A stretch of DNA of 64,000 bases from Alphaproteobacteria bacterium (GCA_965242595.1 OZ251464.1:2568021-2632020), one strand, 5' to 3'; numbered from the stretch's first letter, positions 7,343 through 59,024 are shown. Notes: a model not told the origin generated them from the sequence alone. Program-made: numbers and translations.

Positions 7343-7419
7343 CTGGCGCGCCCGGCAGGATTCGAACCTGCGACCCCAGGATTAGGAATCCTGTGCTCTA
7401 TCCGACTGAGCTACGGGCG
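7343..7419 (-). tRNA. tRNA-Arg (anticodon CCT)
   Basis: The reverse complement GCGCCCGTAGCTCAGTCGGATAGAGCACAGGATTCCTAATCCTGGGGTCGCAGGTTCGAATCCTGCCGGGCGCGCCA folds as a hand-drawn cloverleaf. The anticodon loop is TT-CCT-AA and the CCA is encoded. Confidence 0.9.
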
Positions 7420-7470
7420 CGCGTGCCCTGAGACTAGAGCATATCCGCCGCCCGGCCGCCATGGCGACGG

Positions 7471-9567: not shown

Positions 9568-9573
9568 GGCCTC

Positions 9574-11491: not shown

Positions 11492-11642
11492 GCCACCCTT
11501 CCCTCCACGACGATCCCCCAGGCACCGCCCGGTCGCTGCGGCGACTCTTCCAGCGGCTTCGCCCGGCGGCCAGCCTGCACCAGGCGTCGCCCGAAGTCCA
11601 CAGGGGGAAGCGACCGGGGCCGCCGCCCGCAACGCCTGGGGT

Positions 11643-12883: not shown

Positions 12884-12892
12884 CGCCCTGCC

Positions 12893-14107: not shown

Positions 14108-14252
14108 CGTTCGCTCCCACAAGCGCCGCCCCGAAGCTGGCCGCCGCCTCGCAGCTGGCCGGCGCCATTCGGCCATTCCGGCCACTATAGCACGCCGCCG
14201 TGGCGCCGGGCGGCGCGCCGGGGCATGATGGGCCGCGGCCAGGGAGGATGCC

Positions 14253-15686
14253 ATGGGCGAATGGTGGCGCAGGACGGCGGACGAGATCCGGGCAGCGGTC
14301 GCCGCCGGGGAGGTCTCGGCCGAGCAGGTGATGGCGGACCATCTGGCACGAACGGACGCGGTCAACGGCGCGCTGAACGCCATCACGGTGCGCCTGGACG
14401 ATGAAGCCATGGCCGCCGCCCGCGCCGCCGATGCGGCCAGGGCCGCGGGCCGCCCGCTGGGGCCGCTGCACGGCGTGCCGGTGACGATCAAGGAAAATGT
14501 CGATCAGAAGGGCTGCGCCACCACCAACGGCGTGGCGGCCTTCGCCGATGTGGTGGCGGGCGAAGACGCGCCGGTGGTCGCCAATCTGCGCCAGGCGGGC
14601 GCCATCCCCTTCGGGCGCACCAACACGCCCGAATTCTCGCTGCGCTATATCACCGACAACCCCTTGCGCGGCCTTACGCTCAACCCCTGGAAGCGGGACA
14701 TCACACCGGGCGGCTCTTCGGGCGGGGCCGCCGCCGCCTGCGCCACCGGCCTGGGCGCCATCGCCCATGGCAACGATCTGGGCGGTTCCATCCGCTATCC
14801 GGCCTGGTGCTGCGGCCTGGTGGGCATCCGCCCCACCCTGGGCCGGGTGCCGGCCTACAACCCCACCCAGGCGGAAGAGCGCCCGCCGACGCTGCAGCTG
14901 ATGAGCGTGCAGGGGCCGCTGACGCGCAATGTGGCCGACGGCCGCCTGGCGCTGGCGGCGATGGCCGGGCACGACCCGCGCGATCCCTGGTGGGTGCCGG
15001 CGCCGCTCCAGGCCCCGCCGCCCCACCACCCGCCCCGCGCCGCCCTGGCCCGCGACCCGGGCGGGCTGGGGGTGGCGCCCGAAGTGGCCGACGCCATGGC
15101 CAGGGCGGGCGACGCGCTGGCCGATGCCGGCTATCGCATAGCCGAGATCGACCTGGACGACCTGATGACGACGGCCAGGCTGTGGATGGCGCTGCTGATG
15201 GCCGAGGTGGAAGAGATGATGGAGGCGGCGATCCGTGAGCATGGCAGCCCCCGCATCAACCGCGTCATCGACAACTACCAGGCCGCCGCCGAACTCGTCT
15301 ATGACGGCGACAGGCCGGGCGGTGCCGGCCCCGGCGCCCATATGAGGAACCTGGCCCAGCGGGCCGGCGAGCTGCGCCGCTGGTCGCTGCTGCTGGAAGA
15401 GCACGGCGTGGTGGTGGGCCCGGTTTCCTGCGCGCCGCCGCTGCGTCAGCGCGAGGACGAGCAGGGGCCGCAGCGGGCGGCCGAGATCTTCATCGCCAAC
15501 CGGCTGACCTGCGCGGTCAACCTGCTGGGCCTGCCGTCCGTCGCCGTGCCCACCGGCGCGCCAGGCGGCATTCCGGCAGGAGTCCAGATCGTCGCCCCGC
15601 GCTATCGCGAGGACATGGCGCTGGACGCCGCCGCCGCGGTGGAGGCCCGCTCTGCCCTGCCCCTGCCCATCGACCCGCAATGGTAA
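14253..15686 (+). CDS. amidase (amidase-signature family)
   Basis: It has the AS signature ..GGSSGGAAAACATGLGAIAHGNDLGGSIRYPA.. and is 477 aa. Confidence 0.85.
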   Translation: MGEWWRRTADEIRAAVAAGEVSAEQVMADHLARTDAVNGALNAITVRLDDEAMAAARAADAARAAGRPLGPLHGVPVTIKENVDQKGCATTNGVAAFADVVAGEDAPVVANLRQAGAIPFGRTNTPEFSLRYITDNPLRGLTLNPWKRDITPGGSSGGAAAACATGLGAIAHGNDLGGSIRYPAWCCGLVGIRPTLGRVPAYNPTQAEERPPTLQLMSVQGPLTRNVADGRLALAAMAGHDPRDPWWVPAPLQAPPPHHPPRAALARDPGGLGVAPEVADAMARAGDALADAGYRIAEIDLDDLMTTARLWMALLMAEVEEMMEAAIREHGSPRINRVIDNYQAAAELVYDGDRPGGAGPGAHMRNLAQRAGELRRWSLLLEEHGVVVGPVSCAPPLRQREDEQGPQRAAEIFIANRLTCAVNLLGLPSVAVPTGAPGGIPAGVQIVAPRYREDMALDAAAAVEARSALPLPIDPQW

Positions 15687-15717
15687 GAGGGGCTTGCGAG
15701 CCCGGGCCCCACCGCCT

Positions 15718-16893
15718 TCAGCCGATCCGGCCCGCGTCCCCCGCCTGCCCCGCCGCCAGGCTGTGGGCCAGATAGCGGTAGAACTCCACCAGCGTGGCCT
15801 CGAAATGGGAGAGCGGGCCGCGCGGGGCCTTGCGGCTTCTCATGGCGCGGGCGAGCTCGGTGGTGGCCCGCGAATCCTCGTCGTTGACCTCTTCGATCAG
15901 CCGGGCGCGGGCTTCGGTGCTCTGCGGGTCGTCGCCGGCCAGCTCGTTCCACACCAGATAGCCGCCCAGCACCTTGGTCCGCCCCGGCCCTTCGGGGCGG
16001 AAGGAAAGCCAGTTGTTGGTGCCGGGCCGCATCGCCATGGTGAAGGCGGGGAAGACATAGACCATATAGCCGGTGGCGAGCTCCTCTTCGCTCAGGCCGG
16101 CAAGATCGCCGCGCGGGTTGAAGGGGTGGTCGCTGCCCGCCAGATAGGCCTCGCCCATGCGGCAGCGCTCATGGGTGAAGGTTGCGTCGCTGGCCGGCAT
16201 CTCGGGGACATAGGTGCCCTTGGCCGGCATCTGCACGCCCACCGTGCCGGCGTGAAGGCCGATATGGTGGTAGTATTCCATCGCGTTCTCGGCCGAGAGC
16301 TTCCAGTTGCCTTCCCATTCGGCCTCGTAGTGGAAAACCTCGGTCTGCTGGCCGATGCGGTAGTTGCCGGTGGCCGCGTCCATCGTTGCCATGGTGGCCG
16401 CCAGCGGGGCGGCATCGTCGTCCAGATTGACGAACAGGAAGCCTCGCCATTCTTCCAGCCGATAGCGTGGCAGGCGGCAGGCGGCCTTGTCGAAGGCCAG
16501 GCTTTTTTCCATATGCGGGGCAGCGATCAGGCGCCCGTCGCTGCCATAGGTCCAGGCGTGATAGGGGCAGACGAAGCGCCGGGCGTTGCCCCGGCCCGTT
16601 ATCACCGGCATGGCGCGGTGGCGGCAGGCGGTGTTCAGCGCCCGCAGTTTTCCGTCGGCCCCGCGCACGATCGCCAGCGGCTCGCCCATGACGTCGATGG
16701 TGTAATAATCGCCCGGCGCGGGCACATATTCGCTGCGCCCGACGCACAGCCAGGAACGCTCGAAGATGCGGCTGACCTCCAGCGCATGGAGTTCGGGCGA
16801 AAGATAGGCCTGGGGCGGCAGCGACAGGCAGGCTTCGTCCGGCGTGTCGAGATAGGCGGCCAGCGCGCCCAGCAGGTTGGGAAGGCCCGTCAT
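15718..16893 (-). CDS. Rieske [2Fe-2S] non-haem-iron oxygenase, alpha subunit (paralogue 1)
   Basis: Rieske motif CRHRAMPV..(17)..CPYHAWTY, with a downstream catalytic domain carrying ..EYYHHIGLH.. iron ligands. Confidence 0.85.
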   Translation of the reverse strand: MTGLPNLLGALAAYLDTPDEACLSLPPQAYLSPELHALEVSRIFERSWLCVGRSEYVPAPGDYYTIDVMGEPLAIVRGADGKLRALNTACRHRAMPVITGRGNARRFVCPYHAWTYGSDGRLIAAPHMEKSLAFDKAACRLPRYRLEEWRGFLFVNLDDDAAPLAATMATMDAATGNYRIGQQTEVFHYEAEWEGNWKLSAENAMEYYHHIGLHAGTVGVQMPAKGTYVPEMPASDATFTHERCRMGEAYLAGSDHPFNPRGDLAGLSEEELATGYMVYVFPAFTMAMRPGTNNWLSFRPEGPGRTKVLGGYLVWNELAGDDPQSTEARARLIEEVNDEDSRATTELARAMRSRKAPRGPLSHFEATLVEFYRYLAHSLAAGQAGDAGRIG

Positions 16894-16905
16894 GGCGCAG
16901 GGCGC

Positions 16906-18192
16906 CTATTGGCACATGGTGGGGGCACGCGGCGGGCGGGCGGGGCCGCCCATGCGGGCGATATACCAGGCGACGAAGTTGCGGGTGCCGTATTCGCGCT
17001 CCGAGTAGCGCCCGGGGGCATAGCGGCTGGAGTTCACGCCCAGCTGGTTGTCGTTGATGATCTTGGTGTCTTCGACCGTGGTCACGTCCCACATCCAGAT
17101 CAGCCTGTCCAGATTGTAGTCGCGACCCTGTTCGGCGTCGGCGCGCACCAGCCAGGTCACCACCACCTCGGTGTGCTTCTCGCTCATCGGCGTAAATCGG
17201 AACAAGGTGGCGTGGTCGTTCGCCAGATAGACATAGGAGAGCGGGCCGAACAGCATCAGCGTCTCGCCGCCGTCCCAGTGTTTCAGGTCGCCCATCAGCG
17301 GCGCCACCGGCTTGCCGTCCTGCGACAGGGTGAGAAAGCCGTCGCGGATCGGCTGGCGAAAGACGCCGTGGGGCTGGACCACATCCAGCACCCCGCCCCA
17401 CATATGCACGGTGGCGGCGGCCACGCCCTTCGCCTCCCATCTCTCCACCCAGCTCTCGACGGTGCGGGCGCGTTCGTCGGGCTTGCGGTTGCCGTCGTTC
17501 ACATAGGCGTTGACGGTGGTGTATTCGGGATGGGCGCCGGCGCAGTGATAGCATTCGCGGAAGTTCTCCACCGCCAGCTTCCAGTTGGCGTCGGTGGGAT
17601 AGGTCGCCTTGTGGACGATCTTGGCGTCCGCCAGCCGGTGGGGCCCGGCATAGCGGGCGAAGGTGTGCGCGATGGCGTCGAAATCGCCGATATCGTCGTC
17701 GCCCCGGGCCAGATTGACGAATATCAGGCCCTCCCAGATGCGCACGCGGCAGCGGTGCAGCGGCCACGCCTTGCGGTCGAAATCGTCCGCCATCAGCGGC
17801 GCGTGCACCAGCTCGCCCGCCAGATCGTAAACCCAGGCGTGATAGGGGCAGGTCAGCGTGCGAACATGGCCCTTCGGGGCCAGGCAGATGCGGCTGCCGC
17901 GGTGGCGGCAGACATTGAAGAAGGCGCGCACGCTGCCGTCGCGCCCGCGCACCAGAACGATCGATTCGCCGGCTATGTCGTAGAGCAGATAGTCGCCGGG
18001 GCCGGGCAGGGCCGAGACGTGGTCCACCAGCAGCCATTGGCGGGTGACGATCCGTTCCAGCTCGCGCTCATAGATGGCGCGGTCGGTGTAGAACGCCCGC
18101 TCCAGGGTCATGTCCGGCTGCTGGCGCCGCAGCAGGTCGGCGAAGGCGGCGTCCGCCGGGGGCACCGGGCGGGGCATGACGGTCCGGTTCAT
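16906..18192 (-). CDS. Rieske [2Fe-2S] non-haem-iron oxygenase, alpha subunit (paralogue 2; GbcA/Stc2-like by general resemblance)
   Basis: CRHRGSRICL..CPYHAWVYDLAGELV, then ..NFRECYHCAGAHPEY.. (His/His iron site). Confidence 0.85.
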   Translation of the reverse strand: MNRTVMPRPVPPADAAFADLLRRQQPDMTLERAFYTDRAIYERELERIVTRQWLLVDHVSALPGPGDYLLYDIAGESIVLVRGRDGSVRAFFNVCRHRGSRICLAPKGHVRTLTCPYHAWVYDLAGELVHAPLMADDFDRKAWPLHRCRVRIWEGLIFVNLARGDDDIGDFDAIAHTFARYAGPHRLADAKIVHKATYPTDANWKLAVENFRECYHCAGAHPEYTTVNAYVNDGNRKPDERARTVESWVERWEAKGVAAATVHMWGGVLDVVQPHGVFRQPIRDGFLTLSQDGKPVAPLMGDLKHWDGGETLMLFGPLSYVYLANDHATLFRFTPMSEKHTEVVVTWLVRADAEQGRDYNLDRLIWMWDVTTVEDTKIINDNQLGVNSSRYAPGRYSEREYGTRNFVAWYIARMGGPARPPRAPTMCQ

Positions 18193-18282
18193 GGCTTCGC
18201 TCCTGTCATGGGCGCACTCTCCCGGCCTCCGGCGCGGCCGTCAACCGCAGTGGGCAACCGCGGTGGGCAACCGCAGCGGGTG

Positions 18283-19551
18283 TCAGCTGGCCAGCCGCTC
18301 CAGATACCAGCGCGTGAAGTCGGCCGAATAGTCCTCCAGCGGCGCATAGGGGCCGGGGCGATAGCGGGCGGAGTTCACACCCTTCTGGTTGTCGATGATG
18401 ATCTTGGTGTCTTCCACCGTGGTCACGTCCCACATCCAGATCAGCCGTTTCAGGTCGTAATCGGCGCCTTCCCTGGCGTCGGCGCGGACATGCCAGGTCA
18501 CCTCCACCTGTGTGAGCTCCGGGCTGGCGGGCGTGAAGCGGAACATGGTCAGATGGTCGGCGCACAGATAGGCATAGGAAAGCGGGCCGAAGGTGAAGGC
18601 CGTCTCGCCGCCGTCCCAGTGTTCCAGGCCGCCCAGCAGCGGCGCCAGCGCCCGCCCGTCTTCGGACAGCGTGACGAAGCCTGCGCGGATCGGCTGGCGC
18701 CAGGTGCTCAGGGGCTGGCGCCGGTCGCCGCCCTCGCCCTGGCCCACCGGATGGCCCAGCGCGGCCGTCTTTTCCTCCCAGGCCCTGGTCGGCTCAAGGT
18801 AGCCCGCCACCGGGTCGCGGTCGTGGGCGGCCACATAGGCGTTCACCATGGTGTATTCGGGATGGGCCGGCGAGCAGTGGTAGCATTCGCGGAAATTGTC
18901 CACCACCAGCTTCCAATTGGCATGGGTGGGATAGAGCTCGCGGTGGACGATTTTCGTCTCTGCCAGGCGGTGGCGGCTGGCGAGGCGGTCGAGATCGGCT
19001 TCGATGGCGGCGAAATCGGCCACCTGCGGGTCGCCGGGGGCGGCGAGGCAGACGAAGATCAGCCCGTGGGCGACCTCCACCCGGCAGGGATGCAGGCCGA
19101 AGGCGGATTTGTCGAACCCCTTGGGCATGCCGCGCGCGCCGATCAGGCGCCCTTGCAGGTCATAGACCCAGGCGTGATAGGGGCAGGTCAGGGTGCGGAC
19201 ATGGCCCTGCGGTTCCAGGCAGATATGGCTGCCGCGGTGGCGGCAGACATTGAAGAAGGCGCGCACGATGCCGTCGCGCCCGCGCAGGACGACGATCGAC
19301 TCCGCGCCGATCTCGTAGAGCAGATAGTCGCCCGGACGCGGCAGCTCGCAGACATGGGCGACATAAAGCCAGGCCCTGGCGACCACCTTCGCCATGTCGC
19401 GGCGGAAGATCGCCGGATCGCGGTAGAATGGCTGCTCCAGGGTGAAGCCGGGCCTCTGGCGGGCGATCAGCCGGTCCAGGTCGCCCACATCGTTCGGGCC
19501 GTTCGGTTCGTTCAGACCGTCCATGCGGGTCGCGGCGCCCTGGCCATCCAT
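18283..19551 (-). CDS. Rieske [2Fe-2S] non-haem-iron oxygenase, alpha subunit (paralogue 3)
   Basis: CRHRGSHICL..CPYHAWVYDLQGRLI and ..NFRECYHCSPAHPEY... It is collinear with paralogue 2 along its whole length. The start is uncertain (Met at 19551 or 19524; the ORF is open to 19665). Confidence 0.8.
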   Translation of the reverse strand: MDGQGAATRMDGLNEPNGPNDVGDLDRLIARQRPGFTLEQPFYRDPAIFRRDMAKVVARAWLYVAHVCELPRPGDYLLYEIGAESIVVLRGRDGIVRAFFNVCRHRGSHICLEPQGHVRTLTCPYHAWVYDLQGRLIGARGMPKGFDKSAFGLHPCRVEVAHGLIFVCLAAPGDPQVADFAAIEADLDRLASRHRLAETKIVHRELYPTHANWKLVVDNFRECYHCSPAHPEYTMVNAYVAAHDRDPVAGYLEPTRAWEEKTAALGHPVGQGEGGDRRQPLSTWRQPIRAGFVTLSEDGRALAPLLGGLEHWDGGETAFTFGPLSYAYLCADHLTMFRFTPASPELTQVEVTWHVRADAREGADYDLKRLIWMWDVTTVEDTKIIIDNQKGVNSARYRPGPYAPLEDYSADFTRWYLERLAS

Positions 19552-21769: not shown

Positions 21770-22945
21770 ATGCCCGAAGAGCCGAACGGCCGCTTGCACC
21801 TCCCAAGCCTCTCCATCAAGGGCTTTCGGGGCATCGACGAGCTCGACATCCCACATTTAGGCCGTGTGACCTTGCTAACCGGTAGAAACGGCGTTGGCAA
21901 AACGACGGTTCTGGAAGCTGTTCGGATCTATGCTTCGCGAGGTAGTGAGCATGTGCTATCCAGTCTTCTGTGGGAGCATGAAGAGTACGCAGTTGCTGTT
22001 GACGAAGATGAAGACAGGACGTTTGCCCCGGATCTTGCGACCTTGTTTCATGGTCGCAAAGTATCACTGGATTCTCGTATCGAGATCGGACAATCAGGCA
22101 AAAGGAATCTCATAATTAAGGCAACTACCCCGAGTCATCCTCAAGCAGATCTCTTGGAGAAAGAAGGACTGTATTATGACGCGCAATCGGATACCTCCTT
22201 GTTGGCAATAGCGGTTACACTTTCTGATCGTGAACGAATATTACCTTTGTTTTTTTCACGATACTATCCTTCCATGATGAAAAGGCGCAGACTCTCTCGA
22301 CGATTTGTTGAAGAGCATGGGGAATGGCCGCCAGCATTGAAGTGTCAACCTCTTGGTCCTGGTTTGCTTGACAACAACGCTGTGGCAGGATTTTGGGACG
22401 CCGTGGCACTGACAGAAGATGGAGATCGCGCGGTCGAGGCTTTGAATCTCGTGCTTCATGACAACAAAGCGGCTCAAGTAGCTATGATCGGTGACGATCC
22501 ACGACGCTACCCCCCACGCTATCTCCCATATGCTCGGGCGCTTTACGAGCGGAGGGCTGTCGTAAAACTGCAAGGCCACGACGGACCTGTGCCATTGAAA
22601 AGTCTCGGTGATGGGGCGATACGGCTTTTCGGAGTCGCTCTCGCTCTGGCCGGTAGCCGCGGCGGGTTTCTGGTTATCGATGAGGCCGAGAATGGCATCC
22701 ACTACTCCGCTCACACCGACCTCTGGCGTATGATTTTGCAGACGGCGCGCAAGAATGATGTGCAAGTCTTCGCGACAACTCACAGCTTTGATTGTGTGAA
22801 TGGGTTTGCAAAAGCAGCTTTGGAGGATCCAATGAGTGAAGGCAGGCTTGTGCGATTGGAAAAGAAAGGCGGGCAGATTCGCGCTGTCGCCTATTCGGAG
22901 GACGAGCTCAAAATCGCCTCTGAACAAGGCATAGAGGTTCGCTAG
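21770..22945 (+). CDS. ABC/RecF-like AAA ATPase (AAA_15/AAA_21 type), AriA/AbiL-ATPase-like
   Basis: LSIKGFRGIDELDIPHLGRVTLLTGRNGVGKTTVLEAVRIY (Walker A); ..LKSLGDGAIRLFGVALALAGSRGGFLVIDEAENGIHYS.. (signature-like motif plus Walker B/D-loop); ..VFATTHSFD (H-loop). AT-rich codon usage contrasts with the flanks. Confidence 0.85.
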   Translation: MPEEPNGRLHLPSLSIKGFRGIDELDIPHLGRVTLLTGRNGVGKTTVLEAVRIYASRGSEHVLSSLLWEHEEYAVAVDEDEDRTFAPDLATLFHGRKVSLDSRIEIGQSGKRNLIIKATTPSHPQADLLEKEGLYYDAQSDTSLLAIAVTLSDRERILPLFFSRYYPSMMKRRRLSRRFVEEHGEWPPALKCQPLGPGLLDNNAVAGFWDAVALTEDGDRAVEALNLVLHDNKAAQVAMIGDDPRRYPPRYLPYARALYERRAVVKLQGHDGPVPLKSLGDGAIRLFGVALALAGSRGGFLVIDEAENGIHYSAHTDLWRMILQTARKNDVQVFATTHSFDCVNGFAKAALEDPMSEGRLVRLEKKGGQIRAVAYSEDELKIASEQGIEVR

Positions 22946-22947
22946 GT

Positions 22948-23634
22948 GTGCTTCCGATGGGTGTTCCTGCGAAGAGGCTTTTGATTGTCGAAGGACCGGA
23001 TGACAAACACGTCATTCGCCATCTCCTTAAGAAGCTAGGCTATGAGACTAAAATTGTTAAAGAGAATGGCCGCGTTCACTTTGTTTGTCGGCACTCGGAT
23101 CGTATGGCATACTTCCGCATCGTCGACAAAGGAGGTATCAATCAACTTCTCGACGCTATCGCCCAAGAAGCCAAGGTGTCAGGGCGGCTTGCTCTTGGTA
23201 TCGTTGCTGACGCAAATGAAACCCCATGTTCTCGTTGGAAGGCCATTTCGGACCGGATTCGGAAAATAGAAGTTGAACCGCTTTCATTGCCTGACGAGCG
23301 TGAGCCAGAAGGCACAGTTATCGGGAATATGCTGCGCGTTGGTGTTTGGTTGATGCCGGATAATCGGCGGTGTGGAGAAATTGAAGACTTTGTGCAGGAA
23401 ATGATCCCGGATGATGATCCTGTTTGGCCTTTATCCAAGCAATACATCGGTGATATTCCTTCTCATGACAGGAAGTTTACTCGCAAAAAGAGGACTCGGG
23501 CCGAGCTTTATGCTTGGATGGCAACAAGAAAAGAACCTAGCCGTATGGGAACGGCCATCGGTAGCGGCGATCTGAAGACTGACGGTGAGCTTTGCGCATC
23601 GTTCTCGCGGTGGATCCAGCGTCTGTTCACATAA
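22948..23634 (+). CDS. small Toprim-like protein (DUF4435/DUF3226/DUF4276-type partner of AAA_21 ATPases)
   Basis: The N-terminal strand KRLLIVEGPDDKHVIRHLL matches the xVEGxxD glutamate motif of OLD-type Toprim domains. A second acidic strand, LALGIVADANE, follows. The gene starts 2 nt after the ATPase stop (GTG 22948, or ATG 22957). The family assignment is from memory of consensus sequences and has not been searched. Confidence 0.6.
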   Translation: MLPMGVPAKRLLIVEGPDDKHVIRHLLKKLGYETKIVKENGRVHFVCRHSDRMAYFRIVDKGGINQLLDAIAQEAKVSGRLALGIVADANETPCSRWKAISDRIRKIEVEPLSLPDEREPEGTVIGNMLRVGVWLMPDNRRCGEIEDFVQEMIPDDDPVWPLSKQYIGDIPSHDRKFTRKKRTRAELYAWMATRKEPSRMGTAIGSGDLKTDGELCASFSRWIQRLFT

Positions 23635-45062: not shown

Positions 45063-46016
45063 ATGACCGCTGCATCCGACACCGCCCTGGGGCGCCTGGA
45101 AGCTGTCGATCTGCGCCAGGTGTGGCCGAGGGAAGACGACGGCTTCACGCCCTGGCTCGCCGACGAGGGCAACATCCAGTTGCTGGGCGATGCCATCGGG
45201 GTTGAGCTCGAAGTAGAGGGGATCGAGCAGGGCGTAGGGCCGTTCCGCGCCGACATCCTGTGCCGGGATAGGAACACCGGGCAGCAGGTGCTGATCGAAA
45301 ACCAGTTGGAGCGCACCGACCACACCCATCTCGGGCAGTTGCTGACCTATGCCGCTGGCCGCGATGCCGTCACCGTGGTCTGGATCGCCCGGCGCTTCAC
45401 CGATGAGCATCGTGCGGCGCTGGACTGGTTGAACGAAATCACCGGCAACAAGATCGGCTTCTTCGGCATCGAGATCGAGCTTTGGAGAATCGGCGCCTCG
45501 GCCCCCGCCCCGAAGTTCAACATCGTTTCGCAACCCAACAACTGGACGAAGTCTTCGGGAGGACCGTCTGGGCGCCCCCCGACAGATAGGGAGAAATTTC
45601 TGATTGAATACTGGCATGCGCTCTGGGAGGCGTCCGGTGAAATCCTGGAACGGTGTGGTTATCAACAACCGTCATCCCATTATTTCACAGGCCGCGAAGT
45701 CGGTCGCGTCGGATTCCGGTTATATCTGTTGGCCTCCACTTCGGACAAGTCGATATCCGTTCAATTGGAGATCGACACACAGGACACCAAAGCCGATTAC
45801 GCCGCCCTCCATAACGATAAGGAGGCAATCGAGCACGCGATCGGCGATACGCTCTTGTGGGAAGAACGGCCGGACAAGAAGAGAAGCCGCATCACCCTCC
45901 TGCGACGGGATTGCGACCCAAAAGACCGGGGACTCTGGCAGAAACAGCACGCATGGCTCGTCGACAAACAGGAACTCCTCCACAGCGTCTTCGTGAAACA
46001 AATCGAAGGGCCCTGA
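45063..46016 (+). CDS. DUF4268-type protein with N-terminal PD-(D/E)xK-like nuclease fold
   Basis: ..GPFRADILCRDRNTGQQVLIENQLERTDHTHLGQLLTYAAG.. shows a D...E-x-Q core plus the HLGQ.LTY motif I associate with DUF4268 proteins. Its GC is intermediate, lower than the flanks. Confidence 0.55.
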   Translation: MTAASDTALGRLEAVDLRQVWPREDDGFTPWLADEGNIQLLGDAIGVELEVEGIEQGVGPFRADILCRDRNTGQQVLIENQLERTDHTHLGQLLTYAAGRDAVTVVWIARRFTDEHRAALDWLNEITGNKIGFFGIEIELWRIGASAPAPKFNIVSQPNNWTKSSGGPSGRPPTDREKFLIEYWHALWEASGEILERCGYQQPSSHYFTGREVGRVGFRLYLLASTSDKSISVQLEIDTQDTKADYAALHNDKEAIEHAIGDTLLWEERPDKKRSRITLLRRDCDPKDRGLWQKQHAWLVDKQELLHSVFVKQIEGP

Positions 46017-49764: not shown

Positions 49765-50853
49765 TCACCCCGTCCCCAGGGCCTCGAACAGCCAGTCTTG
49801 CAGCGCGGCGATGGGGTGTTCGCTCATGACGCCGCCGGCGGGGTCGATCACCAGCGGGCCGGGCCGGTAAAGGCCGCTTTCCAGGCCGCGCTGCACCGAT
49901 TCCACAATGGCCACATCTTCGGCGACGGTGGTCTCCAGGTCGCGCCGGGCACAGGCGCGGGCGGCCTCCCGCGCCGCCTCGCCCGCGCCCGCATACCAGC
50001 CGCGCCTGACGGTGACGCGGGCGGGCGAGCTGGCCTGCCAGCGATAGCTGTTCAGGATGCCGCCGGGATAGACCTGGAAGGAAACCGTCGGCCACAGGAA
50101 CCATGAGCCGTAGGCGCCGCCCTCGGCCTCTTCCTGCGCTCCGCCCGCCTCCGCCCGGCGCGCCGGCGGGGCGCTGTGGCGCAGGCAGTGGCCTTCCACC
50201 GCCACGTCGTAGCGGTCGGCGTCGATGACGCCGCCGGTCAGCGCCGGGTGGCGCAGCTTGCAGTGGTAGCATTCGTTGTAATTTTCCACCGAAACCTTCC
50301 AGTTGCAGGCCTCTTCGACCACCGTTTCGGTGACGGGCTTCAGCGTGGCGATGCCGGGCAGGAAGGCGGCCAGCCCCGCTTCGGCGCCCGGAAACCATTC
50401 CGCCATGGGCCGGGCCTCCGGGTCCAGATTGACGAAGACGAAGCCGCAGAACAGCTCGGTCCTGGCCTCGCCCAGGCGAATGTCGCCGCCCGCAAAGCCG
50501 CAGGCGCGCCCGGCCCCCGGCGCGGCCACCAGGCGCCCGTCCAGGTCGTAGCGCCAGCCGTGATAGGGGCAGACGATAAAGGGCCGCCGCTCGTCGCCTT
50601 CCACCAGCGCATGGCCGCGATGGCGGCAGACATTGTGGAAGCAGCGCAGCCGCCCTTCCCGGTCGCGCAGCAGGAACAGGCGCGCCCTGCCGACGCTGAA
50701 GGCGTGGGCATCGCCCGGGCGGGCGAGCTGGCTTTCGTGGCAGGCGAACTGCCAGCTGCGGGCGAAGATCGCCTCCTGCTCGCGGCGGAAGATGTCGTCG
50801 TCGATATACCAATGGGCCGCCAGCGCCCGGCGCGCCGTGCCGTTCTCAGCCAT
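49765..50853 (-). CDS. Rieske [2Fe-2S] non-haem-iron oxygenase, alpha subunit (shorter, CntA/GbcA-like size class)
   Basis: MAENGTARRALAAHWYIDDDIFRREQEAIF.. CRHRGHALVEG..CPYHGWRYDLDGRLV ..NYNECYHCKLRHP... The ATG at 50853 overlaps the upstream molybdoenzyme stop by 8 nt. Confidence 0.85.
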   Translation of the reverse strand: MAENGTARRALAAHWYIDDDIFRREQEAIFARSWQFACHESQLARPGDAHAFSVGRARLFLLRDREGRLRCFHNVCRHRGHALVEGDERRPFIVCPYHGWRYDLDGRLVAAPGAGRACGFAGGDIRLGEARTELFCGFVFVNLDPEARPMAEWFPGAEAGLAAFLPGIATLKPVTETVVEEACNWKVSVENYNECYHCKLRHPALTGGVIDADRYDVAVEGHCLRHSAPPARRAEAGGAQEEAEGGAYGSWFLWPTVSFQVYPGGILNSYRWQASSPARVTVRRGWYAGAGEAAREAARACARRDLETTVAEDVAIVESVQRGLESGLYRPGPLVIDPAGGVMSEHPIAALQDWLFEALGTG

Positions 50854-53275
50854 CTTTCCCTTCCTCCCTTTCCCGCCGCGCCTTCGGGGCCGCCCCGCGC
50901 GCGATCGGCGGTGGCTGGCGCCAGCCGGTCGCCGGCGCGGCGCCCTGCCAGCGTTCCACCTCCACCAGGCAGGTCTGGGCGCTGGGGCCCTGGGCCAGGC
51001 GCGAGGTGCCGATATCCAGGGTGAGAACATTGGCGTTGCCGTGGCGGCAGAGCGCGCCGGTTTCGCCGGGCGTGGCCGGATCCCACCAGGCGCCGGTGGC
51101 CATGCGAACCACGCCCGGCCGCATGTGGGCGCCGATGCGGGCGCCGGCCAGGCACGCCCCGCGCCGATTGAACAGGCGGACCACGCAGCCATCTTCGATG
51201 CCGCGGGCGGCGGCATCGCCGGGCGCGATCCACACCGGCTCGCGGTCCGCCACCTTGGCATCCAGGCTGACCCGCCCGTGATCGTACTGGCTGTGCAGGC
51301 GCCGGGCCGGCTGGCACGAGATCAGGTGGAGCGGAAAGCGCCCGGCCGCCGCCGCGCCCAGCCATTCGGCCGGCTCCAGCCAGCGCGGATGGCCGGGGCA
51401 ATCGTCATAGCCGAAGGCGGCCACGGTTTCCGAATAGATCTCGATCCGCCCCGAAGGCGTGGCGAGCGGCGCGCGCTGCGGGTCGGCGCGGAAGGCGGCC
51501 AGGAAGACCCGCTCTTCATCATGTGCAGCACGGGGGCGCGCTGCTGGATCATGTGCGGCGCGGGGGCGTGCCGCTGGCTCCGGCAAGGGCAGGTCGAAGC
51601 GCCCGGCGGCCCAGAAATCGTCGAAGGCGGGCATGGCGATGCCGCGCTCCGCCGCCCGCTGCCGGCCCTGCCGGTATAAGAAGCGCAGCCAGGCCATTTC
51701 GTCCCGGCCCTGGCCGAAGGCCTCGGCAAAGCCCAGCCGCCCCGCCAGGGCCAGAAGGATGGCGTGATCGGAGCGCGCCTGGCCCACCGGCGCCACCGCC
51801 CGATGCATGGCCAGCAGCGTGCCCTCGCGCGACGAGCCGGTGAAATCGTTGCGCTCCAGCGTGGTGGTGGCCGGCAGCACGATGTCGCAATGGCGGGCCA
51901 GCGGGTTCCACCAGCTTTCGTGGCACATGGTGGTTTCGGGCCGCCGCCAGGCCGCAAGCAGGCGGTTCAGATCCTGATGGTGGTGAAAGGGGTTGCCGCC
52001 CGCCCAATAGACCAGGCGAATGTCGGGCAGAACCACACGGCGCCCGTCGTAATCGATGGCGCGCCCGGGGTGGAGCAGCATGTCGGCGATGCGGGCGACC
52101 GGGATGGCCGGGCCTGCCGGATTGGCGCCCTGATCCAGGGCGGGCCAGGAGAAGCTGGCGGTGGCAGCGCCGATGGCATTGACCGAACCGTAGCCGAAGC
52201 CGATGCCGCCGCCGGGCAGGCCGATCTGGCCCAGCATGGCGGCCAGCACCGTGCCCATCCAATAGGGCTGTTCGCCGTGCTGGCCGCGCGTCAGCGACCA
52301 GGCCAGCGCCAGGGTGGTGCGCCGCGCCGCCATCCGCCGCGCCAGCCTGCGCAGCTGGCAGGCGGGCACGTCGCAGATGGCGCCCGCCCAGTCGGCATCC
52401 TTTGCCTGGCCGTCGCCGCTGCCGGTGAGATAGGGCAGAAAGCGTTCGAAACCGGTGCAATAGCGGGCCAGAAAGGCGGCATCGTGCAGGCCCTCGGCAT
52501 AAAGGGTGTGGGCCAGCCCCAGCATGGCCGCCACATCGGTGCCCGGGCGGATGGCGAGCCAGTCGGCGCCGAGCTCGTCCGCCATATCGTCGCGCGAGGG
52601 GCCGATATTGACGAATTCCACCCCGGCCGCGCGGCACCCGGCCAGGCCTTCGCGCTGGCCATGGCGGCCGGTGCCGCCGGCGCTCACCTGGCCGTTGCGC
52701 GCCGGCAGGCCGCCGAAGGCCACCACCAGCTGGCCGTGGCGGGCCACGGTGCGCCAGGCGGTGTGGGCCAGCAGCAGCTCCTGAAACGGCCCCAGCACAT
52801 GGGGCAGCACCACCTCGCCGGCGGCATAGCTGTAGCTGTCGCGGGACGCGGTATAGCCGCCGAACAGATTCATGAAGCGGTGCAGCTGGCTCTGGGCGTG
52901 GTGGAAGCGCCCGGCCGAGGCCCAGCCATAGCTGCCGGCATAGATGGCGCGGTTGCCGTGGGCCCGGCGCACCCGCGCCAGTTCGCCCGCCACCAGGTCC
53001 AGCGCCTCGTCCCAGGGCAGCTCGACGAAGGGCTGGCACCCGCGCCCGCGGCTGTCGCCGCCCGGCCCGTGTTCCAGCCAGCCGGCCCGCACCGCCGGGC
53101 GGCGGATGCGCAGCGGGCCATCCTGCGCGCCGGGCATGGAATCGGCCAGGGGCGAAGGGTCGGGGTCGCCGGCGGCGGGGTGCATGGCAACCACCCGCCC
53201 GGCGCGGACCTCGGCCGCATAGGCACCCCAATGGCTGGCCGTGGGGACCAGGCGGGTGCTGGAGGCGTCGCTCAT
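50846..53275 (-). CDS. molybdopterin-dependent S-/N-oxide reductase (DMSO-reductase family, BisC/TorZ-like), no Tat signal
   Basis: MSDASSTRLVPTASHWGAYAAEVRAGRVVAMHP.. is a BisC-like cytoplasmic N-terminus with no twin-arginine leader. The gene is about 809 aa and has the C-terminal ..NVLTLDIGTSRLAQG.. motif. Confidence 0.8.
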   Translation of the reverse strand: MSDASSTRLVPTASHWGAYAAEVRAGRVVAMHPAAGDPDPSPLADSMPGAQDGPLRIRRPAVRAGWLEHGPGGDSRGRGCQPFVELPWDEALDLVAGELARVRRAHGNRAIYAGSYGWASAGRFHHAQSQLHRFMNLFGGYTASRDSYSYAAGEVVLPHVLGPFQELLLAHTAWRTVARHGQLVVAFGGLPARNGQVSAGGTGRHGQREGLAGCRAAGVEFVNIGPSRDDMADELGADWLAIRPGTDVAAMLGLAHTLYAEGLHDAAFLARYCTGFERFLPYLTGSGDGQAKDADWAGAICDVPACQLRRLARRMAARRTTLALAWSLTRGQHGEQPYWMGTVLAAMLGQIGLPGGGIGFGYGSVNAIGAATASFSWPALDQGANPAGPAIPVARIADMLLHPGRAIDYDGRRVVLPDIRLVYWAGGNPFHHHQDLNRLLAAWRRPETTMCHESWWNPLARHCDIVLPATTTLERNDFTGSSREGTLLAMHRAVAPVGQARSDHAILLALAGRLGFAEAFGQGRDEMAWLRFLYRQGRQRAAERGIAMPAFDDFWAAGRFDLPLPEPAARPRAAHDPAARPRAAHDEERVFLAAFRADPQRAPLATPSGRIEIYSETVAAFGYDDCPGHPRWLEPAEWLGAAAAGRFPLHLISCQPARRLHSQYDHGRVSLDAKVADREPVWIAPGDAAARGIEDGCVVRLFNRRGACLAGARIGAHMRPGVVRMATGAWWDPATPGETGALCRHGNANVLTLDIGTSRLAQGPSAQTCLVEVERWQGAAPATGWRQPPPIARGAAPKARREREEGKDG
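51518..51577 (-). repeat. 2 x 30-bp in-frame tandem duplication inside the molybdoenzyme gene
   Basis: atcatgtgcagcacgggggcgcgctgctgg / atcatgtgcggcgcgggggcgtgccgctgg, with 26 of 30 positions identical by my count. It encodes ..PAARPRAAHD PAARPRAAHD... Confidence 0.85.
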
Positions 53276-53413
53276 GGCCACCTTCTCCCGCAATGTGCGG
53301 ACGCCCGTGCGGGGCGCGCTGCCGGTGTCTCACAGCCGGCGCGGCGGCGCAATGGTGGCGGCGGGCGGGCGTCCTGCTAAAGTCGGGCGGCGCACAGCGC
53401 GGGAGGCGGGGCG

Positions 53414-55099: not shown

Positions 55100-55609
55100 T
55101 CATTGGTCGCCGGTGACCTCGGTGACGAAGAGGATCGCTTCCGGACGCTCGCCGGCCCGGTGCGCGCCGACCCAGACGCTGTAGAAGCCTTCGCCCGCAT
55201 GCTCGACCATCACGGTCGGGCGGCCATCGGCTTGGCCATCGTCGTGCAGCCAGCGGCCGTCGGGGGTCGAGACCAGCAGGGTCGTGGCGGCGGAGGATTG
55301 CACGAAGAGCCTGAGATCGCTCCAGCCACTGGTCCGGTAATGGATGTCGAGGGCGGGCGCGGCGGCGACATAGCCGGCCTGGCCTTCCCCGTGGCAACGG
55401 GCGAGATCGGCCCCGCCGCCGGCCGCGACATGGCTGTGCCAGGGATCGGGCGAAAACCCCTCGTCCAGCCAGGCGCCGCCATGGGAGGCCGGCAGCATCC
55501 TGTCGGGGCACGCGGCTTCCGCGTCGGGCGCCATCCCGGCGGGCTGACATGCCGCCAGGGCGAGAAGCCCTGCGATGGCTGCGGCAAGGGCCGTGCAGGC
55601 CGTTTTCAT
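55100..55609 (-). CDS. hypothetical lipoprotein
   Basis: MKTACTALAAAIAGLLALAAC has a lipobox (LAAC). A strong SD sequence, AAGGAGA, lies 4 nt upstream of the ATG at 55609. The listed ORF start at 55663 would overlap the neighbouring gene. Confidence 0.65.
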   Translation of the reverse strand: MKTACTALAAAIAGLLALAACQPAGMAPDAEAACPDRMLPASHGGAWLDEGFSPDPWHSHVAAGGGADLARCHGEGQAGYVAAAPALDIHYRTSGWSDLRLFVQSSAATTLLVSTPDGRWLHDDGQADGRPTVMVEHAGEGFYSVWVGAHRAGERPEAILFVTEVTGDQ

Positions 55610-55659
55610 CTTCTCTCCTTTGGGGTAATCGCCGCCGCGTCGAAGTCGGCCAGCACCCA

Positions 55660-57363
55660 TCAACCCTTATAGTGCGTCGGCAGTCTTCTGGGGCCTTCGT
55701 CAGTTGGTTTACCAAATTCTCCATATTGACTAAGCTGTTCGGGTAGTTCCTCCGCTGCACCGCCTATCGCGACAGCAAGCTGAGGGTACTCTGTCTTTAA
55801 ATCCGGATATCGTTCGGTAAGCCACGAGGGCACGTCCGGTGCGAGTATACAGCGCAAACGACGACCATGAACCCTAACAGATTTATTTCCCAGCTCACGA
55901 ACCATTGGCAATCTCGAGCTCCCACCAGTGAGTATGATAGTAAGCCCTTGGTCAGACAGTCCTTCAACCCAAGAATGGTGCGCACTTTCCAGCGACTCCT
56001 GGAACGTTTTCTTGAGGTTACTCGCGAACTTGACAACTCGCTCGTCTCCCAGGAAATCGTCTTTCCTGATCGATCCGACGTCATCGTTGGAAAGGCTGTA
56101 GCTAGCTGATCCTTCCCGAAACATGTTCTCTTTCAGGATTCGATCACGCAAGCGGAGATCGGAATTAACATGATCGTATTCAGCATCTCCAGGCCTGATA
56201 TTTTCCTGTTCGAGAATACACCTTACCAGTATGTTGTCGATCATATCCCCGCCTTGCCGCAATACTTTAGCTGTATTAAGTATCTCAGCGATCCTTGGTT
56301 GGTCGTCTCCACTTCGAGGTGGCGCGACGATAAATAAACCATAATCTGTCGTCCCAGCACCAGCATCCACCACCATATACAAACGGCGCTCCTTGAATCC
56401 TCGCAGACTACTCGACGCGGCCGCGACTGCCTCATGTACACCTTGATCGATGAGGTATTCCGGGAGCTTTGTAAGCTCTCCAACTTCATCGAGTTTCTCT
56501 CGAACAAGGGCAACACCAAGTCCTCCAGTCCACTTTCCGCTGAATGAATCAGCAAGAATCTGCGCTCTCGCTAGCATCTCTTTTATTCGCAATTCTGCCC
56601 ATTGAGCACGTTCTTTCGACCAGAAAGGCATAGCAAAACGCCTTAATACATAACGGGATATGTTCTGGGACGCGAGCTCAGAGCATGCCAAGTCCGTTAA
56701 GAACGCAAGATATAGGGTGATCAATTCTTTCCTCATAAAATCAATCGATGGGTGCGGATTAATCTCTTTCCCAATTGGTCTGTCGATAAAGTCGAAAGAA
56801 TCGTCGAAATAGCCTTGACTTAGGTCTTGTTTCAAAGAATCATACCGCAACTGTCCGGGATTCTGTTCACTCAGGCTTTTACCAATTGCTTCATGACCAA
56901 AATAAATCTTGGCATCACGACCAATGTACAGGGTCGAAGATACCGGAAATTTCATGTGTGGTTCTTTGGCTCGTTGCCCTATAGGAAGAAGGAGAAGCCC
57001 ATCACCCCAATCTCTTGTCGCAGATGCCTTCGACATGGCCGTTCCAAAGTCGAGGCACAACTTCACGGATTCATCATCGGGTTTGTCACGCTCCAAACTG
57101 GCAAGATTCAAGCTTGCCCCTTTCGGTTTCACCACCACCTCTTCAGATCCTGCTATACTTCGCTCCGTCAGCGGCACGTGGTTCGTTGGCATGATCGAAG
57201 TGGCGCCGTCATCCATTGTAGCCAATGCGTACGCGATGGCCTCGAATTCCCGATCCGAAATCGCACCACCGATATAGCGTTTCCCGGTTTTCGGATTTCT
57301 CTCAATCCTGTCCACCAGATTCTCCAGCATCAACCTAGCAATCTTAGCGTCCATTGCATTCAC
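55660..57363 (-). CDS. Hsp70/actin-fold (ASKHA) ATPase, nucleotide-binding domain only, with about 100-aa N-terminal extension
   Basis: ..VKLCLDFGTAMSKAS.. (phosphate-1, compare DnaK IGIDLGTTNS); ..VHEAVAAASSS.. (compare NEPTAAALAY); ..LYMVVDAGAGTTDYGLFIV.. (phosphate-2, compare DLGGGTFD); ..LTIILTGGSSRLPMVREL.. (adenosine motif, compare VGGQTRMPMV). There is no recognisable beta-sandwich/lid substrate-binding domain. Codon usage is AT-rich. Confidence 0.8.
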   Translation of the reverse strand: MNAMDAKIARLMLENLVDRIERNPKTGKRYIGGAISDREFEAIAYALATMDDGATSIMPTNHVPLTERSIAGSEEVVVKPKGASLNLASLERDKPDDESVKLCLDFGTAMSKASATRDWGDGLLLLPIGQRAKEPHMKFPVSSTLYIGRDAKIYFGHEAIGKSLSEQNPGQLRYDSLKQDLSQGYFDDSFDFIDRPIGKEINPHPSIDFMRKELITLYLAFLTDLACSELASQNISRYVLRRFAMPFWSKERAQWAELRIKEMLARAQILADSFSGKWTGGLGVALVREKLDEVGELTKLPEYLIDQGVHEAVAAASSSLRGFKERRLYMVVDAGAGTTDYGLFIVAPPRSGDDQPRIAEILNTAKVLRQGGDMIDNILVRCILEQENIRPGDAEYDHVNSDLRLRDRILKENMFREGSASYSLSNDDVGSIRKDDFLGDERVVKFASNLKKTFQESLESAHHSWVEGLSDQGLTIILTGGSSRLPMVRELGNKSVRVHGRRLRCILAPDVPSWLTERYPDLKTEYPQLAVAIGGAAEELPEQLSQYGEFGKPTDEGPRRLPTHYKG

Positions 57364-57384
57364 TCCAGTTTGTTTTCGGCTCGC

Positions 57385-58863
57385 CTACTCGGGCTCAACT
57401 CTGGCCATTAAGACGACTTCAGTAGTATCGTCGCCTCGCACTCGCTCTACCAAGGGGCGAACGATTCTCACGCGCCGCGCACCTACTATAGAGCTATCGA
57501 CTCTCTCATGCTCGATTGGCGAGTAATCCACCACTTCACCCCTTTCCCCCCGCAAATATAGAGACCGTTTGCTGGCAAGAGCAAGTACTTCTTCTGCCAT
57601 GAATTTCGCTCTTTTTAGAAGCATCTCGATACTCGCCTTGCGATCAGGTTCGAAGATATGCATTTCGTCCAGAAAATCACGCCCTGGCCCATCGATCATC
57701 TGGACAAGCCGGCGGCTATCGATTAACAGCAAGGCAAGTGCTTGATCGGAATCCATCCGTGCACTCTCGGCAATGAGTTCTGCTCCATGCACTCTTCCCG
57801 TCACCCGTCCTCGCCGAAGCCACTGGACAACATTCTTGCTAAGACCTGTGGTTTGATCCGCGATCCTGGATGTGGTTTTCAAAGCCTCTTCGCGCGATCC
57901 CTTCATTAGAGCAAGAGACTCCAGCAGTTTATCCTCTGGAATGCCCTGTTTGGCCAGAAGGATAATGGCTTCTTCAATGTCAAACGCTAAAATTGTGAGT
58001 GACTTGCGGGCATTCTTTGGCCATATCCTCCCCACAAACCATCGGGAGGGAACACGCATCGCCATGTACACTTCCTCCTCTGTCACCAGCGAAAGTCGTG
58101 TTCTTACGAGATCGTGTAGAAACAACGCAAACTCCACTACAACATCGGTGGCCTTGTCTAGCGACTTTGGTTGACCAACATTCCGAAAGGTGTCGGCAAA
58201 AAGTCCCTCTACAACTTTTCCTATGTCATTACCCACTGGCTTCTCTATATGCGGAAGTTCTTGGCGAATAGCTGCGAGAATGCGTTTCAATCTCTTTGCC
58301 GTACTGTCGCTTGGCACGTCCGTCCCCGGATGCCATTCGGTAAGCGGTTTACGAAGAGCACCGAACGCGCTCGCAAGGTCGGGAGCTTTCTCCAGTAAGG
58401 TCTGAACAAGCTCACTTCTTGCCTTTTCCCCTGCTCCCTCTTCCACAATTGATTTCCCGAGATACGGGACCACCCACTCGCCTTCTGCCCATCGTAGTGT
58501 TTGGGTGGCATATGCTCGGTCTTCTGCATCACTAAGTTCAGAAAGCTTGGGTAGCGGTGTTCGCAGCGCCGCAGCTATGGATTGCATTAAACCATCGCGC
58601 TTGGTTTTGAGCCGGCTCGCTATGCGCGCAACTACGGTGAGGGCGAGCAACTTTTGCCTTGGATCGCCACTTGACTGAACTTCTTTAATTGCATCTTCAA
58701 CACCCTGAATGAACCTCGGGTCATCATGCACGAAGTGAATTGTTCCCCTCTTCATCAATTCCTTCAAACTATGTATCTTTCGCTCCATTTTGCTATCATT
58801 GGCAAACGTGTGCAATGCAGCTTCGACGGAAGGCCGATTATCGATTGACTTCCTCTCATTCAT
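57385..58863 (-). CDS. hypothetical 492-aa protein, mostly helical, first gene of the operon with the Hsp70-like ATPase
   Basis: It is a clean AT-rich ORF that ends 21 nt upstream of the ATPase start, and I recognise no catalytic motif. The C-terminal segment ..GEVVDYSPIEHERVDSSIVGARRVRIVRPLVERVRGDDTTEVVLMARVEPE loosely recalls the GrpE beta-domain pattern (FDP..H.A ... V..V..GY ... RpA.V.V). This is a weak, unverified resemblance. Confidence 0.7.
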   Translation of the reverse strand: MNERKSIDNRPSVEAALHTFANDSKMERKIHSLKELMKRGTIHFVHDDPRFIQGVEDAIKEVQSSGDPRQKLLALTVVARIASRLKTKRDGLMQSIAAALRTPLPKLSELSDAEDRAYATQTLRWAEGEWVVPYLGKSIVEEGAGEKARSELVQTLLEKAPDLASAFGALRKPLTEWHPGTDVPSDSTAKRLKRILAAIRQELPHIEKPVGNDIGKVVEGLFADTFRNVGQPKSLDKATDVVVEFALFLHDLVRTRLSLVTEEEVYMAMRVPSRWFVGRIWPKNARKSLTILAFDIEEAIILLAKQGIPEDKLLESLALMKGSREEALKTTSRIADQTTGLSKNVVQWLRRGRVTGRVHGAELIAESARMDSDQALALLLIDSRRLVQMIDGPGRDFLDEMHIFEPDRKASIEMLLKRAKFMAEEVLALASKRSLYLRGERGEVVDYSPIEHERVDSSIVGARRVRIVRPLVERVRGDDTTEVVLMARVEPE

Positions 58864-58960
58864 CGTGCACCGCTACCTCGTATTGTACGTGCAAATTTGA
58901 ATCCTCATAAAGGGTACACCACGTAACCATGATGTGTCTTCGATCTCTCTGTGGAGTTCA

Positions 58961-58989
58961 TGTATAACGGCCATCGCATGCTTAGTCAA
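58961..58989 (-). promoter_or_regulatory. candidate sigma70-type promoter for the 58863-55660 operon
   Basis: The minus strand reads TTGACT-N17-TATACA (-35 at 58989-58984, -10 at 58966-58961), about 100 nt upstream of the ATG at 58863. A GAGGT Shine-Dalgarno sequence lies 11 nt before the ATG. This is pattern matching only. Confidence 0.4.
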
Positions 58990-59024
58990 GGCTCCATATC
59001 GCTGTAGCCCAGAAAAGCGATCAT

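Follow-up and report, generated by a model that had tools for sequence, protein, structure and literature searches.

Closest described systems

PDC-M61 belongs to a set of 145 candidates proposed on the basis of "guilt-by-embedding" (Payne, Hughes, Fineran, Jackson 2024, bioRxiv 10.1101/2024.01.29.577857), and corresponds in the supplementary table of that preprint to cassette CAS_00187, made up of two protein families. PDC-M61 was made a candidate because its copies are embedded in BREX, DISARM or type I restriction-modification (RM) systems (bioRxiv 10.1101/2024.01.29.577857). The preprint reports seven Hma-embedded systems as validated, the PDCs not being among those tested there, and describes Hma-embedded cassettes as able to defend on their own. 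The subject of the present analysis is a pair of adjacent minus-strand genes, here called A and B, located in a 64,000-nt stretch of Alphaproteobacteria bacterium DNA (GCA_965242595.1 OZ251464.1:2568021-2632020; this whole stretch is referred to as the window, and all coordinates are based on it). Judging from the profile matches of both products, the pair is a solo, intact copy of this named but uncharacterised candidate.

Besides Payne et al., only one further paper naming PDC-M61 was found in the literature. In one study of P. aeruginosa isolates PDC-M61 correlates negatively with prophage number, a weak population signal. The window pair and PDC-M61 belong to the same family, both proteins matching over their full length, with the same gene order and strand. 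PDC-M61 was defined from copies lying within BREX, DISARM or type I RM systems, whereas the copy in the window is solitary, with metabolic genes around it.

The nearest described parallel to the pair is CnuD of CoCoNuT. CnuD/CnuCD proteins combine an Hsp70-like nucleotide-binding domain (NBD) and substrate-binding domain (SBD) with HEAT-like repeats, and go with the McrBC-like CnuBC (Bell et al., eLife 2024, PMC11090510). The likeness resides in CnuD being part of a predicted immune system and bringing together an ATPase domain of Hsp70 type, coiled coils and HEAT-like helical repeats (PMC11090510). In CnuD both parts are found in one protein, and the SBD is retained; in the window they are split between two genes, and the SBD is missing. 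The ATPase motifs of CnuD are degenerate (PMC11090510), while those of the B family are invariant or nearly so. CnuD depends in addition on McrBC-like partners, a distinction drawn, as the others, from the published description of CnuD. Neither a McrB-like GTPase (CnuB) nor a DUF2357 McrC-like protein (CnuC) was found in the window, or in the recurrent neighbour clusters of the 80 loci surveyed below.

Hsp70-family proteins, NBD-only ones included, have also been assigned a role as NTP-dependent regulators in predicted GTPase-centric conflict systems, in which a DO-GTPase is associated with tubulin and HSP70 proteins, or GAP1-N2 with HSP70, GrpE and NBD-only HSP70 proteins (Kaur et al., eLife 2020, PMC7159879). 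These systems are built on GTPases, tubulin homologues and DnaJ/GrpE partners, none of which is present at the window pair.

B shares with canonical Hsp70 proteins (DnaK-GrpE; Hsp70-HspBP1/Fes1/Sil1) the four-lobe NBD fold and the catalytic residues, but lacks the SBD and the interdomain linker, carries an extra N-terminal domain of ~50 residues, and stays below the Pfam HSP70 threshold. Known Hsp70 exchange factors include proteins of the Armadillo/HEAT type (HspBP1, Fes1, Sil1) and GrpE, which is made up of a coiled coil and a beta domain. The solenoid, hairpin and beta domain predicted for A echo both the armadillo-type factors and GrpE, by analogy only, yet no sequence similarity links A to GrpE or to a family in Pfam, and no J-protein is present.

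The window pair as a copy of PDC-M61

The product of A matches the PADLOC PDC-M61A model PDLC04728 with E 4.6e-84 (280.6 bits; residues 13-490 of 492, profile positions 9-487 of 489), and three more PDC-M61A models of PADLOC-DB v2. The product of B matches the PDC-M61B model PDLC04731 with E 5.6e-135 (449.3 bits; residues 4-553, profile positions 1-573 of 588). The PDC-M61 gene order is kept, A preceding B, the two genes being adjacent, both on the minus strand and separated by 21-30 nt. The first-pass annotation of this DNA had taken the pair for a candidate undescribed system that fits none of the named ones, a claim which the full-length matches to PDC-M61A and PDC-M61B contradict; a match to a named PADLOC system was among the outcomes which that annotation had itself listed as speaking against novelty. 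What is new here is another copy; the family itself is already catalogued as a phage-defence candidate. The patch is read as a solo, functional PDC-M61, i.e. a mobile two-gene cassette serving as an ATP-driven anti-phage (conflict) module, with a rough probability of 0.55.

The features of the locus are:

57385..58863, minus strand: gene A, PDC-M61A family, 492 residues from ATG 58863, 476 residues if started at TTG 58815; open reading frame (ORF) with PADLOC match
55660..57354, minus strand: gene B, PDC-M61B family, 564 residues from ATG 57354, the ORF reaching GTG 57363 (567 residues); PADLOC match
57363..57366, minus strand: putative ribosome-binding site GGAG, 8 nt upstream of the gene B ATG; read from the sequence
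58961..58989, minus strand: promoter-like element TTGACT-N17-TATACA upstream of A; a weak candidate read from the sequence

The GC content of the window falls to 0.44-0.53 from ~55600 to 59000, against 0.70-0.78 in both flanks. The resulting AT-rich patch (~50% GC in a genome of ~72% GC) is filled by the two co-directional genes, the ORFs being read at 57385..58863 (492 residues, ATG) and at 55660..57363 (567 residues, GTG). ORFs and GC drop are as the first-pass annotation had described them, and the motifs quoted there (LDFGTAMS, VVDAGAGTTDYG, ILTGGSSRLPMV, YSPIEHERV, VRIVRPLVER, VVLMARVEP) are all found in the translations. The spacing of 21 nt given there holds if B starts at GTG 57363. 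ATG 57354 is the more likely start, however, because GGAG lies 8 nt upstream and a protein of 564 residues fits both a database protein (P0001) and the N-terminus of the family; the gap between A and B is then 30 nt. The start of A is ambiguous, and may be either ATG 58863 or TTG 58815. In L081, a metagenome contig syntenic with the window, a stop codon is found inside the region equivalent to the upstream extension of A, and A is called at 476 residues; the first 16 residues of A are poorly conserved. Both genes are considered real because they have hundreds of homologues and low ratios of nonsynonymous to synonymous substitutions (dN/dS 0.15 for A and 0.28 for B, relative to the closest relative).

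The promoter-like element consists of TTGACT at 58989-58984, a 17-nt spacer and TATACA at 58966-58961, and TTGACT-N17-TATACG is found at the equivalent position in L081. The element noticed in the first-pass annotation is present and has a counterpart in L081, but misses the T at the final -10 position, for which reason it was not called by a consensus scanner. The same scan revealed no surplus of promoter-like sites (2 found, 3.2 expected).

The neighbours of the pair in the window encode SDR, 3HCDH, peptidase M19, lipoprotein and GMC oxidoreductase products. Hma genes (HmaA/HmaB/HmaC) do not flank the pair, metabolic genes being found instead. No integrase or transposase was found among the ORFs listed around the patch, and no direct repeats beyond chance-sized matches flank it, as was noticed earlier; no tRNA lies near the patch, the closest being 31.4 kb off.

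Gene B, an Hsp70-type ATPase devoid of the substrate-binding domain

By profile search and structural model, B is an Hsp70-fold, NBD-only ATPase with intact motifs. Two domains were delimited:

55729..57102, minus strand: Hsp70-type NBD of B, residues ~88-545; PDB profile search, Foldseek and invariant columns
57208..57354, minus strand: N-terminal domain of B, ~50 residues (residues 4-52; helix, beta hairpin, helix); AlphaFold2 model and conservation

B scores 13.4 bits with Pfam HSP70 (PF00012), below the gathering cut-off of 20.6, and 19.3 bits with NCBIfam HscA, not reaching the threshold of 620. A family profile built from 37 members hits the Hsp70 NBD (lobe II) in PDB with E 2.6e-10, the EPxAA, DxGxGTxD and GGxxxxP motifs being aligned motif for motif. 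The AlphaFold2 model (m6cdd2bf636b6; mean predicted local distance difference test score, pLDDT, 85.6) matches in Foldseek the NBDs of DnaK/Hsp70 proteins (E ~1e-14, best 7e-15), with template modelling (TM) scores up to 0.70 when normalised to NBD-only targets; the best hits are NBDs of the Hsp70 type rather than ParM or MreB.

In the model the N-terminal domain, in which R19, E39 and A42 are conserved, is followed by a disordered linker (residues 53-87) and by the NBD, which stops at ~545 and is followed by a disordered tail of ~20 residues. The SBD is missing, and canonical client binding is therefore impossible. Both the NBD-only Hsp70 fold and the lack of the SBD had been anticipated, and find support in the PDB profile search, in the Foldseek matches and in the model. 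Family members range from 540 to 640 residues, including an N-terminal extension of ~90 residues. B is acidic (pI 5.7), and neither A nor B has transmembrane segments, both being soluble.

Across 67 sequences, residues expected at the active site show no or almost no variation. They include the phosphate-1 motif D105-F-G-T-A-x-S-K112, the phosphate-2 motif D333-x-G-A-G-T-x-D340, the catalytic residues K178 and E311, R408, K411 and E412 in the adenine helix, and G480-G481. Given this conservation, B is predicted to bind and hydrolyse ATP.

Gene A, a helical-repeat protein

No family or match was found for A in Pfam, NCBIfam and PDB sequence searches. The AlphaFold2 model (m14e75262a223; mean pLDDT 85.7) was built on an alignment of 17 sequences sharing 50-85% identity, and a profile search retrieved the 16 proteins already found with the single sequence and no others. 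Three parts are predicted:

57811..58836, minus strand: all-alpha solenoid of A, HEAT/ARM-like stacked helical pairs, residues ~10-351; AlphaFold2
57568..57771, minus strand: long antiparallel helical hairpin of A, residues ~365-432; AlphaFold2 secondary structure
57388..57567, minus strand: small C-terminal beta domain of A, residues ~433-492; AlphaFold2 strands 435-491 and conservation

A disordered loop (residues 354-371) stands ahead of the hairpin. Conservation peaks in the C-terminal beta domain (2.17 bits), R433, L435, G442 and V489 being near-invariant. Foldseek comparison to PDB retrieves generic alpha-solenoids only (beta-catenin, importin-alpha, AP2; TM<=0.3), and the comparison to viral structures (BFVD) retrieves nothing, so that no specific known homologue of A emerged from sequence or whole-chain structure searches. 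A is basic (pI 8.8).

The C-terminus of A had been likened to the C-terminal domain of GrpE. None of 36 diverse A members matches Pfam GrpE (PF01025) at E<=1, and no GrpE chain is hit at E<=10 when the A profile is run against all PDB sequences; homology to GrpE was accordingly discarded at the sequence level. In the model a hairpin (365-432) precedes a beta domain (435-491), and whole-chain Foldseek results are dominated by the solenoid. The resemblance is hence to be taken as a loose architectural analogy only, i.e. a helical hairpin followed by a beta domain.

Distribution and genomic context of the family

Homologues of B form 180 clusters at E<=1e-3; those of A form 483 representative clusters among 1.84 billion, all ~485 residues long, and no fusions are seen among the best 150 matches listed. 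The distribution is sporadic, members being found in Proteobacteria, Myxococcota and Acidobacteriota. The organization of the cassette was monitored in GTDB species representatives, in which 123 loci with B relatives were found and 80 kept, A being searched for by a hidden Markov model. A adjoins B in 77 of the 80 loci, usually directly upstream, on the same strand and at a distance of 2-50 nt, and the order A-B is found in ~70 of the 80. The distance matrices of A and B are correlated (r=0.89, Mantel p=0.001), A evolving faster than B. A is a dedicated, co-evolving partner of B, as the first-pass annotation had supposed, and the pair co-occurs well beyond the genome of origin.

The loci without an adjacent A are one truncated contig and two Bryobacteraceae loci. 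In the latter an Hpt-domain ORF of 135-150 residues (L056 9298-9705, L065 9267-9719) replaces A before a 607-residue B-like protein, and this arrangement may represent a variant with another partner. In three loci (L045, L049, L055) B is followed by A on the other strand; with the genes convergent, translational coupling cannot be a requirement. At L074 a gap of 773 nt, with two small opposite-strand ORFs in it, separates A from B. Some A ORFs are unusually long. Those of L060 (7842-10001) and L069 (7836-10001), ~720 residues each, consist of a DUF4391 region (11-221) and a PDC-M61A region (240-719), and are probably the product of naive ORF calling, by which the DUF4391 gene of a SNF2 plus type III RM-like system was merged with A; at both loci a HEC-07-like protein of ~960-1000 residues follows B. 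In the 1112-residue A ORF of L055 the additional part is devoid of domains, and the call may run too far.

The cassette is found repeatedly inside or beside anti-phage systems. In 14 loci the gene order is HmaA, (HEC-09), HmaB, A, B, HmaC, (TIR gene), with the HEC-09 and TIR genes optional but often present; A and B share the strand of HmaB and HmaC and fill the interval between these two genes. In 5-6 loci the pair is flanked on one side by a SNF2 helicase or DUF4391 gene and on the other by genes of a type III RM system (methyltransferase, restriction), HEC-07-like and Schlafen/AlbA_2 genes being present at times. PglZ-BrxL of BREX adjoins the pair in 4 loci. In Chromatium okenii and C. weissei (L005 and L027, ~5000-19500) the pair resides inside a Ter cluster, in the order PRTase_2/TRSP, TerB-TerD, A, B, Amidase_2, TerD, VWA, TerY_C, PP2C, kinase (TerY-P triad). 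Recurrent defence genes are found within 10 kb in at least 29 of the 80 loci, a minimum estimate, as annotation was confined to neighbour families that recur. The view of the patch as a compact, defence-like islet of foreign composition agrees both with the GC profile and with these neighbourhoods.

The same data bear on the idea that A and B serve methylation-based restriction systems (Hma, BREX, type III RM) as an accessory or regulatory module, the window copy being an orphan. The fixed place between HmaB and HmaC at the 14 loci is what such a module would show, as are the positions between a SNF2 helicase/DUF4391 gene and the type III methyltransferase, or directly after PglZ-BrxL. Yet the host systems vary (Hma, BREX, type III RM, Ter), a situation that suits independent cargo more than a dedicated subunit. 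Within 10 kb of the pair no such system is found at most loci, those of the window, L081 and L083 among them; purifying selection acts on the solo copy; and Hma-embedded cassettes can defend alone, according to Payne et al. (bioRxiv 10.1101/2024.01.29.577857). The accessory role is, on balance, rather unlikely.

Local history of the patch

In two metagenome contigs, L081 and L082, the pair occupies exactly the slot that it has in the window, the shared order being luciferase-like, M19, 3HCDH, SDR, A, B, lipoprotein, GMC, molybdopterin enzyme. Window positions 55658-58868 and L081 positions 4997-8213 are 84.6% identical at the nucleotide level in the module, while the flanks are ~95% identical. 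According to Nei-Gojobori estimates, dS between window and L081 is 0.06-0.14 in seven flanking genes, 0.50 in A and 0.44 in B, so that the module alleles exceed the backbone divergence ~5x at synonymous sites. The dN/dS values of A (0.15) and B (0.28) indicate that both genes are under purifying selection. The flank gene least conserved in the comparison (89% amino-acid identity, dN/dS 0.42) is the one found just downstream of B (55100-55609, minus strand); it encodes a 169-residue protein with a signal peptide and a lipobox-like start, MKTACTALAAAIAGLLALAAC.

Replacement of cassettes by divergent alleles through recombination is common at defence loci, and the high dS of the module is compatible with this type of allele turnover; the alternative is a faster synonymous change in AT-rich DNA undergoing amelioration. 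A relative with 66% identity is found in an unrelated metabolic neighbourhood. No empty site was found: exact-sequence look-ups of B and of the SDR retrieved no record, and the best match in a metagenome scan with the SDR was 62% identical and devoid of synteny. Horizontal acquisition, which the first-pass annotation had proposed, is plausible from composition and sporadic phyletic spread; it is not recent, since a relative with ~95% identical flanks has the pair in the same slot.

Other features of the window

A second AT-rich islet of two genes (21770-23634, plus strand; GC 0.45-0.58 vs ~0.72) encodes a 391-residue ABC-type ATPase (AAA_21/AAA_15) and a 228-residue DUF3226 protein. It corresponds to PADLOC candidate PDC-M38 (PDC-M38A, E 9.6e-80; PDC-M38B, E 4.9e-34), and shows weaker similarity to AbiLi, AriA and GajA. 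The presence of this islet nearby was counted in favour of a defence reading of the A-B pair. Further low-GC patches are found at 1-1000 (GC 0.55), which runs off the window edge, and at 45400-45900 (0.52-0.59). In the molybdopterin oxidoreductase ORF (50846-53293, minus strand) a 10-residue peptide, PAARPRAAHD, is directly duplicated in tandem.

Proposed function of the pair

We infer that the pair itself has anti-phage activity, and the steps of such an activity may be outlined as follows. B, a catalytically competent Hsp70-fold ATPase which has lost its SBD, would act as a switch. A would bind B physically, and supply in trans the roles of the missing domain and of co-chaperones. These could be two, i.e. 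the recognition of a target, either a phage or a host protein and possibly nucleic acid, and control over how B passes through its nucleotide cycle. Driven by ATP, the A-B complex would then switch and in this way block infection, its target being sequestered or remodelled. A more specific scheme, offered tentatively and to be regarded as doubtful, has PDC-M61 as a chaperone-fold immune system without an enzymatic effector, in which the solenoid partner A might be an exchangeable recognition module, and the phage might be stopped when one of its proteins, or a host factor that it needs such as DnaK/DnaJ/GrpE, is captured or remodelled in an ATP-dependent manner.

Several data weigh against an ATP-driven anti-phage cassette. 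The assignment by "guilt-by-embedding" is a prediction, not a result, and no experimental work on PDC-M61, or on any Hsp70-NBD defence pair, was found in the literature. Neither A nor B has a recognisable effector domain, be it nuclease, TIR, membrane or other. Over half of the surveyed loci have no annotated defence neighbour, the count of defence contexts being a lower bound, and the neighbours are metabolic and not defence genes both in the window and in L083. No tblastn match to the module was found in 72,556 plasmids or in 50,697 phage genomes, and in IMG/VR the module is found in 1 of 2.9 million viral contigs. The high dS of the module, finally, could alternatively result from the amelioration of AT-rich DNA in a GC-rich genome.

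The pair may alternatively be a specialised proteostasis or stress module, formed by an Hsp70-like ATPase and its own exchange or adaptor factor, with a role unrelated to phages. The NBD fold and the intact ATPase motifs of B would suit this role, as would the union of solenoid, hairpin and beta domain in A, exchange factors of both armadillo/HEAT and GrpE type being known. B has no SBD, however, no J-protein is found nearby, and A carries no GrpE sequence signal. A housekeeping chaperone is hard to reconcile, moreover, with a distribution that is sporadic and rare (the 483 representative clusters of A mentioned above), with foreign composition, and with the embedding of the pair in defence systems, and this role is quite improbable. 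ASKHA ATPases include filament formers, and a few B homologues are marked MreB_Mbl in precomputed Pfam, but the notion that a mobile element carries the pair as selfish cargo (addiction or toxin-antitoxin-like, anti-defence, or an actin-like filament system of the ParM/MreB type), suggested also by foreign composition and patchy distribution, is very improbable, as the pair has no matches in plasmid or phage collections and no flanking mobility genes or repeats, B is structurally closest to Hsp70 NBDs and not to ParM/MreB, and the pair is kept in one chromosomal slot in two lineages under purifying selection. That A and B, soluble and without transmembrane segments, are not addiction or membrane proteins was counted in favour of the defence reading.

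Implications

As a test case the window copy is clean and minimal, since it consists of two genes with their own upstream region and no adjoining defence genes. If PDC-M61 defends against phages, it would do so by a new mechanism, relying on an active Hsp70-fold ATPase and a repeat protein, without nuclease, NADase, membrane or nucleotide-signalling domains. If the scheme outlined above is true, B would be the first experimentally tractable Hsp70-fold protein found as the core of a bacterial antiviral system, and PDC-M61 would be related to the Hsp70-plus-HEAT unit of CoCoNuT while standing free of such a system. Understanding PDC-M61 may reveal how chaperone-type ATP switches serve immunity, and shed light on the Hsp70/HEAT units of CoCoNuT.

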